Shown: positions 60,090 through 63,050 of the stretch, piece by piece | Position numbering within the stretch: the stretch's first letter is position 1 | How the letters are laid out: each line of letters starts with the position of its first letter | NCBI GenBank assembly: GCA_030390025.1 | Contig: CM059431.1 | Coordinates: forward strand, 126,482,001-126,546,000 | DNA: 64,000 nt | Reading direction: 5' to 3' | Origin: Squalus acanthias | Lineage: Eukaryota | Translations under genes and position numbers: made by a program | The notes under the pieces: generated by a model | What the model was told of the DNA's origin: nothing | Database searches by the model: none | Seen by the model: only the letters and a program-made list of their open reading frames with translations

Positions 60090-61238
60090 TTAAATTCTGA
60101 GAAGGCTGCTGCGAGCTCTTCCCGACGGTGGGAGGGCACTGACCCTTCCCTCTGATCTGCCGCAGCCTGTTGCTGCGCTGACCCTTCCCTCTGATCTGCC
60201 GCAGCCTGTTACTGCTGCGATGTGGCCGGTCTGTATCTGGGTTATCTTAACCTTAAATTTTCGCCTTGGGGCAGTCTGGGGACATGACCACATCCTCCTG
60301 GGCTGGGGTTCTCTACTTGACCTACGGGGAGTTGCTATGGGCGGGGGTTCCGTGACGGACGGACCGGGTTCCGAGACTTCCATCGGGATGACCTGGGGTT
60401 CCATCACAGTCGCTGGCTCCGCCTCCGCTGACTCCGCCTCCCTAACCTCGGGGCTGGCAGTTCGTGGCTCCGCCCTGCTTGGCCCAGCAGGCCGCCCTTC
60501 ACTCGTGATCTCTGCCTCCCCCGAGGACTGGACGTTCAAAGCGGGCGGCCACATCTCTGGGAGCCACACCGGTACTCTCTGTGCTCCCATAGCGGCTGGC
60601 CCTGCCTCCTCTAGCTCCTCCCTCCTGTCTTCGGGACCTGCAGCTCGTGTGTCCACCCTGTGTGGATCTCTACCTACAGCCCCCATTCCCTCCAGACCGT
60701 TCCTCAGGAACCACCCGTCATCATCACTATTCTCATCTGCACTATCCTCATCTGACCCGGGTACTCTGAATTCTTCCTCATCTAACCCCCAATTCCAGAA
60801 AAACGCTGCATGATCGTCCGGGATGTCCCTTCCCCTGATGCAAGCTGCTATGCCTGCCTGTGTGCCTTGTGGTCCTACCTGGGGCTGTGCTTTCCCGTTG
60901 GCGGGATTTACCCCTGTGGTTTTCCCTTGCGCACCTGGCTTGTACAGTTTGCACTGGTTTACATCCTCATACTCCCGGCTTTTGGCTACCCTGTAGGCTG
61001 CTTTTATCTCTCTAAGCTGCCCTTCTAGCCTGAGCACGTCTAACTTTCCCATTGATCGGGCGTTCTCCTCCCGCAGGGCCTGCTCTCTAAGCTGCCCTTC
61101 CAGCCCATCTATTTTCCCTATTAAGCGGGCGTTCTCCTCCCGCAAGGCCTGCTCTTTTAACCTGGCCTCCTCACCGCAGACCCCCTCCTGTGCGTGTCTT
61201 TTAAAAGGACACAGGTAGGCAGGCTGCGTGGGCTCTAG
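60090..61238 (-). CDS. Unknown 382-aa ORF in frame with gag after UGA (occupies the pol position)
   Basis: No stop from 61238 to 60090; coiled-coil duplication, acidic and Pro-rich tracts, 13-aa repeat; no Pol motifs. Confidence 0.7.
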   Translation of the reverse strand, partial: LEPTQPAYLCPFKRHAQEGVCGEEARLKEQALREENARLIGKIDGLEGQLREQALREENARSMGKLDVLRLEGQLREIKAAYRVAKSREYEDVNQCKLYKPGAQGKTTGVNPANGKAQPQVGPQGTQAGIAACIRGRDIPDDHAAFFWNWGLDEEEFRVPGSDEDSADENSDDDGWFLRNGLEGMGAVGRDPHRVDTRAAGPEDRREELEEAGPAAMGAQRVPVWLPEMWPPALNVQSSGEAEITSEGRPAGPSRAEPRTASPEVREAESAEAEPATVMEPQVIPMEVSEPGPSVTEPPPIATPRRSSREPQPRRMWSCPQTAPRRKFKVKITQIQTGHIAAVTGCGRSEGRVSAATGCGRSEGRVSALPPSGRARSSLLRI

Positions 61239-63050
61239 TCATGGGGTACCGGCGGACGGTCCTGCGGCACCTACGGGGCCGGTTGCGACCGCCACCTGTC
61301 CACGCGCATTCAAGACCAGCTTGCGCATGGCTCCTAACACTGCTTCGAGGTCGTCAGGAGGGGTGGGTGCACTAGCTTCCCTAGCCGGGACAGGCGCCTG
61401 GGCTCGGACCGCGGGATTTTTATCCTTGGAATCCTTCCAAGGGTTCCTGCAATGCTTGCGCCAGTGCCCTGTCTTCCCACACCCGTAACAAGCATTACCT
61501 GCCTGTGGGGCGCGATTACCCTCCTGATGCCACTCTCTTTGATACGGGGCTGCGGGTCGTACCTCATGTACTCTTCCCTTAAGGGGACGTGTTGCCATAC
61601 CCCTTATATTGCGATAACCTAACGTGAGTCGATTCAAGACCGACTCTTCCGTAATGTTGGGGTCATTGGGATCAAACCATGCTTTTGCCTGCTCTCTGAC
61701 GGCTGGTAAACTGTTGGCTATTATGCATCTAAGCCAATGAGCTAAACCGGCGCCTTCCACATCTTCGCGCTCGGGCGCACCTAGACAGCTGCGCTCATAT
61801 ACTGGCCACAGCCTGTCGGCAAAAACCTTCGGGGGTTCTCCCTCCATCTGCACTGTCTGTCCCACTCTAGCAAACGGACCTTCGTCGTTCGCCCCCAACA
61901 CTTCCAGGACCTCATTCTTTAATTCCTCATAACTCTTGGTTCCCCTCTTGCTCTCGCCTGAGAGACACTGAAGGACCGAGCTGTCTAATGAGAACAGCAG
62001 CATTTTTGCTGTCTCCCCATCATCGCAGCCGTTAATGGCTGCGGCTTGCTCAACTTCTCTGAAATGTACGGAAGGGTCGTCTGCCTCGGTCAGCTTCCAT
62101 ACGTCATTTATCATAGCTCTCAGCTGATGTGAACTGTGAGGCAACACCAGCTGTCCGAGGAGATCCCCCGGTTCTTCCCCACCGTTTCTGCTTGGGCCCC
62201 TTTTAATACCCGTTACTGGATACAACGATCCCTTTCCTACTTCTTTTTCAATGGGCTCTTTTGTTTCTTCCATTGCTTCCTCCCTAACCCAGGTTTCCGA
62301 ATAGCTGGGTGGCGCGGAGGGCGCAGTGGCTACTACTTCTTCTGCTTTACTTGGTGGGGATTTCTTAAACCTCTCACTTACTAGCGGCTGGTGTGCCGAT
62401 GGATTGATAAGGCACACCATGCCGTTCGCATTGTTCACGGCCTTTTTGAGGTGCTCTATCTCCCTTTGGCAGGCGCTATGATCGGCTCCCTGAAACTTAT
62501 CCTCAAGGGCCAACTTATATGCCGCCCTAACCCCCGTTAAGCTCTCTTCTTGAGTTCTTATCTGGGCAGCTTGGCGGTTACATCTTTCCTTTAACCTGCT
62601 CTCATTCAATTTTGCCTCAGTGACCTGGCACTCGAGATAATCTATCCTTGTTTTAAGGTGACTGGAGACTTCCTGGCTTTCTTGGTGTAACTCATTTAAA
62701 TTCTTAATGAGCACCTCCCCTCCAGAAACCTTCTCATCCATTTCTCCCTCTAAATGACTGATTCGAGCTACTAGCGCTGTAATGGTCTGGTTTGAAATCT
62801 GAACCTGCCTTTTGTAACACATAAGCCAGACTGCTTTCTCAAGTGTCTTTCTATGTTCTTTACTATCTGTCCACCTTTCAGCTGCCTCTAGTGGGCTCTT
62901 ATCCGCTAACAATTCACTTATCCATTTCTTAGTTAGATTAACCTTTCCAAACACATAATCCGCTATCTTTTCCTGCATAACATTTCGTACAGTCATTCCA
63001 AAATCTAACACACTACCCTCTCGCTGCCAGTGTCCTGCCGCGGTCGCCAT
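61239..63050 (-). CDS. gag: Gag-like protein (coiled coil, capsid-like region, CCHC knuckle)
   Basis: 603-aa ORF right after the 5' LTR; CYGCGKTGHWRKHC (CX2CX4HX4C); the first ATG lies in the PBS, so the real start may be a downstream Met. Confidence 0.92.
   Translation of the reverse strand: MATAAGHWQREGSVLDFGMTVRNVMQEKIADYVFGKVNLTKKWISELLADKSPLEAAERWTDSKEHRKTLEKAVWLMCYKRQVQISNQTITALVARISHLEGEMDEKVSGGEVLIKNLNELHQESQEVSSHLKTRIDYLECQVTEAKLNESRLKERCNRQAAQIRTQEESLTGVRAAYKLALEDKFQGADHSACQREIEHLKKAVNNANGMVCLINPSAHQPLVSERFKKSPPSKAEEVVATAPSAPPSYSETWVREEAMEETKEPIEKEVGKGSLYPVTGIKRGPSRNGGEEPGDLLGQLVLPHSSHQLRAMINDVWKLTEADDPSVHFREVEQAAAINGCDDGETAKMLLFSLDSSVLQCLSGESKRGTKSYEELKNEVLEVLGANDEGPFARVGQTVQMEGEPPKVFADRLWPVYERSCLGAPEREDVEGAGLAHWLRCIIANSLPAVREQAKAWFDPNDPNITEESVLNRLTLGYRNIRGMATRPLKGRVHEVRPAAPYQREWHQEGNRAPQAGNACYGCGKTGHWRKHCRNPWKDSKDKNPAVRAQAPVPAREASAPTPPDDLEAVLGAMRKLVLNARGQVAVATGPVGAAGPSAGTP
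63033..63049 (-). promoter_or_regulatory. Primer-binding site, tRNA-Ser-like
   Basis: TGGCGACCGCGGCAGGA 5 nt after the LTR CA; TGGCG...GCAGGA resembles the complement of vertebrate tRNA-Ser 3' ends (isoacceptor not confirmed). Confidence 0.65.

Follow-up and report, generated by a model that had tools for sequence, protein, structure and literature searches.

A UGA-CUAG stop, a candidate readthrough site, joins gag to an in-frame reading frame without enzyme motifs in a pol-less provirus of Squalus acanthias

Why would a provirus that lacks pol end its gag gene in a stop codon of a leaky type, followed in the same frame by a long open reading frame that carries no enzyme motifs? Here, we describe this junction in a 64,000-nucleotide stretch of DNA from Squalus acanthias (NCBI GenBank assembly GCA_030390025.1, contig CM059431.1, positions 126,482,001 to 126,546,000 of the forward strand; this whole stretch is called the window, and all positions below refer to it). 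The element is a very young copy of a multi-copy, helper-dependent, pol-less provirus family with an F-like env. On the minus strand its gag (61239-63050; 603 amino acids from the first ATG at 63050) ends in TGA at 61241-61239, with ACC CCA directly before and CTAG at 61238-61235 directly behind, and a second open reading frame (ORF), here called ORF2 (60090-61238; first ATG at codon 63), continues in the gag frame for 382 codons, giving a potential read-through fusion of 986 amino acids. A first-pass annotation had pointed out this leaky-type stop before an open in-frame ORF, and the sequence confirms it.

The seven bases TGA-CTAG (61235-61241, minus strand) form a candidate type II readthrough site under the published definition of the motif, UGA followed by CUA or CGG (PMC13517186, PMC3542737; published sources are cited here and below for the portions available). 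The gag end has UGA followed by CUA and an in-frame downstream ORF. By itself the TGACTAG 7-mer is unremarkable, with four occurrences in the window; it ends one of the 35 window ORFs of at least 150 codons, namely gag, and gag alone among these has more than 139 in-frame codons behind its stop. From local composition, CTAG is expected after a given stop with a chance of about 0.004, and base shuffles of ORF2 were never free of stops (0 of 20,000; mean 14 stops). The type III sites of gamma- and epsilonretroviruses, the parallel drawn in the first-pass annotation, have UAG in a purine-rich context; the stop here is TGA-C, and lokiretroviruses and alphavirus type II sites fit better. Human genes with UGACUAG show readthrough of at least about 1.3%, and a stem-loop that begins near +8 is frequent at type II sites (PMC13517186, PMC3542737). 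As UGACUAG alone reaches this level in human genes, a minor 986-amino-acid product would be expected whenever the RNA is translated, and we consider it highly likely that the gag stop is genuinely leaky.

Is this TGA the true end of Gag? Two homologues, P0001 (skate, 52% identity) and P0002 (45%), and the C-terminal part of a third, P0007 (43%), stop one column past the last residue of the window protein. P0004, P0005, P0120 and P0121 share their C-terminal ends with their cluster representatives, and P0003 diverges, with an early end at 334 amino acids. Because homologues of 43-52% identity terminate at the same aligned column, the TGA is the natural Gag end of the family. The named homologues, of Gag and of Env alike, belong to cartilaginous fishes; Xenopus has weaker matches to Gag. 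Gag has an N-terminal coiled coil, a capsid domain and one CX2CX4HX4C zinc knuckle. In a structure model of mean predicted local distance difference test score (pLDDT) 49, capsid domains could be aligned with residues 308-391 (Z up to 8.3, root-mean-square deviation 4.0 over 78 residues); Foldseek returned no match to this model at E 0.001 or better, and re-alignment of its own candidates gave capsid-type proteins in all 50 rows listed.

The same motif stands at the gag-pol junction of lokiretroviruses. The supplement of PMC7947760, from which we took the consensus elements and counted frames by hand, has separate annotations for seven gag or smc-gag proteins, and six of them end in TGA-CTA: Ofa, Pyo and Sau in TGA-CTAG, Bsp, Dcl and Lro in TGA-CTAA. 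The remaining one, Tfu, shows TGN-CTA in the corresponding alignment position, and its annotation runs on to a stop further along. In Cne the equivalent position holds TGA-CTAG, and Pfl, the one read of nine elements annotated with a continuous gag-pol, has CGA-CTA inside it. For Ofa, Cne, Pyo, Sau, Dcl and Lro, the start of pol as annotated shares the frame of the stop; Bsp keeps the homologous motif in frame, but its annotated pol starts in another frame. Elsewhere than at this junction, the supplement holds 13 of its 17 TGACTAG matches. Type II readthrough is thus a likely mode of expression at the lokiretrovirus gag-pol junction, judging from the motif and its frame. The available main text of PMC7947760 mentions neither readthrough, stop codons nor frameshifting, and found lokiretroviruses in none of the three Orectolobiformes genomes screened. 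Term searches of the available text of PMC9040795, PMC12440569, an errantivirus preprint and the Bhikhari preprint gave no mention of gag-pol readthrough; literature searches, largely without subscription papers, found nothing that joins lokiretroviruses with readthrough and nothing further on this junction.

Lokiretroviruses resemble the window element in the order LTR-gag-(pol)-env (LTR, long terminal repeat), in a coiled coil before the capsid domain and in TGA-CTA at the end of gag, and perhaps in an F-like Env with RxxR (PMC7947760); the lokiretrovirus trait is an Env related to Mononegavirales F proteins. They differ from it in that the window element lacks pol, and hence both a placement by reverse transcriptase (RT) in the Loki clade and the tether plus RNase H, that its Gag has a CCHC knuckle, and that its sequence after the stop has no visible similarity to theirs in the available supplement. 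The coiled coil and retroviral/Ty3-like capsid fold found in its Gag are lokiretrovirus traits that occur in other LTR elements too, and are therefore non-diagnostic. The shared motif may thus go back to common descent or to convergence, since only RT could settle whether the family is a lokiretrovirus.

Do other copies of the element keep the stop? Contigs from 4 of 24 sequencing runs (X1, X14, X17 and X19) were compared with the window over 59900-62100. Record 21 of X17 and record 30 of X19, both from other organisms, cross the stop free of gaps, with six and seven differing letters. None of the differences seen, 40 of 249 rows, falls at 61235-61241; the first-pass annotation had named a changed stop or context in other copies as a refutation, and the data are consistent with conservation of the motif, short of proof because 40 of 249 rows were seen. 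Three contigs (X14, X19) track the window to 61249 and then differ at all five bases of 61250-61254, just upstream of the stop. In X17, a contig parts from the window at 61207, codon 11 of ORF2, and runs into 20 unlike letters that are free of stops in frame. This single contig is probably a pol-bearing relative, and ORF2 codons 1-11 (61207-61238, minus strand) are then a probable remnant of the N-terminus of pol. We take the 20 letters beyond 61207 to resemble the start of a retroviral protease. Many aligned contigs are just 90-95% alike to the window, so the family predates this copy.

Among metagenomes, 23 of 424 candidates gave weak Gag matches, mostly to the zinc knuckle; the next stop was read in 19 of the 23, and none resembled the window family. 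At one of these 19 loci (L014, WNGD01025892.1; frame from 2220) an unrelated retrotransposon-like frame ends in TGA-CTAG 257 codons past its zinc knuckle and stays open for at least 59 codons more, possibly another type II site.

What, then, is ORF2? A motif check of its sequence saw no protease, RT, GPY/F or HHCC motif, no Pfam family reached the cut-off, no homologue appeared among 8000 scored candidates, and the best Atlas value was 0.82, a weak lead. Residues 46-96 (60951-61103, minus strand), partly tandem-duplicated, are homologous to the distal Gag coiled coil: their score is 22.3 bits on a profile built from 14 Gag homologues, the window excluded (best of 1000 shuffles, 5.5). The link is visible through the profile alone, as direct BLASTP of Gag against ORF2 was insignificant (E 2.2). 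The remainder is rich in P, E, R, A and G and ends in a low-complexity tail. By its sequence, ORF2 is not Pol, and reads as a patchwork of a Gag coiled-coil piece and this tail. Its tandem repeats are spaced 69 and 39 nt, multiples of three, and its length variants of 21 nt (X14, X17), 57 nt (X14, X19; letters between remain unread) and net 75 nt (X1) all preserve the frame, while in the adjoining 59900-60089 three of three indels are not multiples of three; two compensated +1/-1 pairs in ORF2, possible alignment artefacts, were left out of this count. There is thus some sign that the frame of ORF2 matters, and the substitutions seen give no sign of constraint on its amino acids.

Folding of the 150 nt downstream of the stop, as the first-pass annotation had suggested, predicts a weak extended stem-loop from 7-10 nt past the stop to about +70 (61169-61232, minus strand). 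The predicted hairpin (z -2.66) is of modest strength, and its z varies from +0.2 to -2.8 with the length folded.

The reading that we lean towards, as somewhat probable, combines an inherited gag-pol type II site that is still leaky with an ORF2 frame kept for a benefit in cis. An autonomous parent would have made Pol by type II (UGA-CUA) readthrough and handed down TGA-CTAG; the enzyme domains would have been lost in a helper-dependent lineage, and the pol-head remnant, the duplicated Gag coiled-coil piece and the low-complexity tail would now fill the frame. Most ribosomes would terminate and release the 603-amino-acid Gag, and a few per cent would insert a residue at UGA and make the Gag-ORF2 fusion at the former level of Gag-Pol. 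The ORF2 frame would stay open across sub-lineages since translation through it would help the element in cis. The fusion might co-assemble with Gag through its second coiled-coil piece, by analogy with the mouse intracisternal A particle (IAP) 1-delta-1; or the passage of ribosomes might shield the genomic RNA from nonsense-mediated decay (NMD), which would agree with a frame that is preserved while its amino acids vary freely and has a reporter precedent, UGA-CUAG contexts being found to reduce NMD. Inheritance from the parent, readthrough and benefit to the element are what we infer. The proposal in the first-pass annotation that an ancestral gag-pol recoding signal was kept gains from the true Gag end, the type II context, the UGA-CUA where gag meets pol in a retroviral lineage whose env is similarly F-like, and the contig that departs from ORF2 past codon 11, in the manner expected of a pol-bearing relative; it loses from the lack of constraint on the amino acids of ORF2 and from the modest hairpin.

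Several results weigh against this combined reading. DNA of an autonomous relative was not recovered from viral contigs, either by Gag alignment (0 of 42 candidates) or by the junction pattern (0). The parallel between lokiretroviruses and the window family may be convergent, the lokiretrovirus screen having listed none of three Orectolobiformes genomes. Contigs over ORF2 show events that break the frame or stay ambiguous: an isolated +1 (at 60643; depth 22.6 of 107,282), a 614-nt skip that deletes the stop and a 97-nt back-step. The 22 ORF2 substitutions among the 40 rows seen are 8 synonymous and 14 non-synonymous with no stops, against 6.2 synonymous and 0.6 stops expected (P 0.25 and 0.53). 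As the LTRs are without mismatch, the open frame of this copy is uninformative on selection. The hairpin ranks 12th among 159 70-nt segments of the element and so is not outstanding, and its 3' arm lies beyond the point of departure at codon 11.

The strongest competitor is a neutral relic, in which the inherited signal still leaks, the fusion has no function, and ORF2 is open through the stitching of coding pieces and recent amplification. Mismatch-free LTRs, the lack of a synonymous excess, the part of ORF2 copied from gag and the tail without family or homologue all agree with it, and we regard it as possible though rather unlikely: the stitching preserved the frame, the repeats and the chief deletion variants come in multiples of three where the neighbouring non-coding indels are not, two of the frame-keeping variants are each present in two organisms, and the divergence of the contigs makes the family older than this copy. 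Were it true, the junction would be an ordinary leftover in a defective provirus, and the lokiretrovirus observation alone would keep its interest.

CTAG would be unneeded if ORF2 were expressed separately, whether through splicing, an internal promoter, reinitiation or a start at the codon-63 ATG. ORF2 does contain seven in-frame ATGs, and the Candida retrotransposon Tca2 shows that such junctions can mislead: by itself, its junction gave no readthrough in Saccharomyces cerevisiae, and a minor promoter lies inside (PMC2194720). Yet 62 codons lie open ahead of the first ATG, whose -3 position is T, a variant skipping 61027-61107 loses this ATG (rare, depth 40), and no splice-like joint into ORF2 occurs among the contigs, which drop rare forms; we think this route improbable. 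We give slightly less credence still to the idea that the TGA is a lineage-specific stop that took the place of a sense codon within an unbroken gag-pol, or that its context is coincidental. The nine lokiretrovirus elements annotated with an unbroken gag-pol, among them one that has CGA-CTA here, and the four copies of TGACTAG in the window speak for it, and the common end of the 43-52% identical Gags and the low chance of CTAG after a stop speak against it.

How does the candidate site compare with known systems? Alphaviruses (SINV, ONNV, CHIKV) and the human UGACUAG genes share UGA-CUA(G) and a possible stem-loop from about +8 with it (PMC13517186, PMC3542737), and the alternation of stop and CGA in alphaviruses recurs in lokiretrovirus Pfl; unlike in these, the site in the window is the end of a retroviral gag. 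Moloney murine leukaemia virus (MoMLV) and WDSV (walleye dermal sarcoma virus) also have an in-frame stop past the zinc knuckle, where it sets the ratio of Gag to Gag-Pol, but this is UAG in a type III context, with a pseudoknot in MoMLV, and the window product would lack enzyme. Tca2 likewise has gag-UGA-pol in a single frame, in a fungal Ty1/copia element (PMC2194720). IAP 1-delta-1 is, like the window element, an abundant non-autonomous endogenous retrovirus (ERV); its deletion takes part of gag and pol and leaves one ORF, a novel gag-pol fusion that is reported to act in cis (PMC6466679), whereas the window gag is whole and recoding would yield the fusion as a minor product with a duplicated Gag segment. 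A 2026 review of readthrough gives UGAAGA, UGACGA and UGAAGU as retroviral UGA contexts, and its available text does not mention loki, shark or cartilaginous.

The mechanism class is already known; its use at the gag-pol junction of a retrovirus with F-type Env, and the retention of a recoding site before a chimeric ORF without enzyme, were not found in the literature searched. The papers searched do not say by what route Pol is expressed in lokiretroviruses and related fish elements, and the UGA-CUA junction offers a testable answer. If conserved, with a single continuous element having CGA instead, this junction would extend alphavirus-type readthrough to retroviral gag-pol. If the combined reading is true, a recoding site that outlived its enzymes would show helper-dependent reuse of the Gag-Pol slot, for a cis-acting chimera or for RNA protection. 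A bolder joint reading, which we offer tentatively and would not expect to hold in full, is that UGA-CUA readthrough is an undescribed Gag-Pol strategy of a broad F-Env lineage comprising lokiretroviruses and the window family, and that the pol-less satellite redirects the site to dose, where Gag-Pol once stood, a cis-acting chimeric Gag with a second coiled-coil piece; by assembling particles or capturing helper enzymes, this Gag might explain the high copy number.

The provirus around the junction is delimited by a 5' LTR (63055-64000, minus strand), which runs past the window end and matches 55388-56350, the comparable part of the 3' LTR (minus strand; its start lies above 56350). The pair has no mismatches and one 17-nt gap over 963 columns, and the insertion is thus very young. 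An 18-mer like a primer-binding site, starting TGG, lies 5 nt after the LTR end (63032-63049, minus strand); it may correspond to tRNA-Arg(UCG). No tRNA gene lies in the window. The stretch 63032-63050 overlaps the gag start codon and so doubles as the first Gag codons. A Pfam search and a motif check found no pol in the element, and the paired LTRs, primer-binding-site-like sequence, gag and many copies are those of a non-autonomous ERV/LTR element. The stretch is contained in 20 of the 24 listed sequencing runs, spread over four organism labels, with none of the containing runs recorded as RNA, which does not bear on expression, and in run X1 alone 2800 contigs align on 2.2 kb, with many variant letters.

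The env-like gene (57453-60016, minus strand), an F-type look-alike, lies in two overlapping frames (60016-58058 and 58442-57453), a split that is present in this copy despite the mismatch-free LTRs. Homologues in Rhinoraja and Pristiophorus are about 70-75% identical in the best local alignments, and the sequence contains RQRR (compare the RxxR cleavage site). Its likeness to F-type fusion proteins comes from language-model features alone (Atlas, 0.94-0.95 to gypsy Env, Baculo_F and Fusion_gly clusters; low recognition, 1415); Pfam and PDB sequence searches gave no match for the protein, and its structure model (pLDDT 33) was unusable.

The provirus adjoins a repeat (span 54276-55282) with direct copies, 54306-54450 with 55131-55275 and 49362-49985 with 54451-55070 (96%); this repeat is 68% similar, in opposite orientation, to 56635-57005 and is perhaps a related LTR. 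A DNA-transposon-like unit is present in three copies (28159-31504, 41306-45514 and 49982-54287; 88-92%), with a DDE_Tnp_4 transposase ORF at 52619-53785 and, on the opposite strand, a partner ORF with a 54-nt tandem repeat. Frame fragments at 6839-11530, 18720-20932 and 40441-41253 are, from their translations, presumably of a LINE-like endonuclease and RT.

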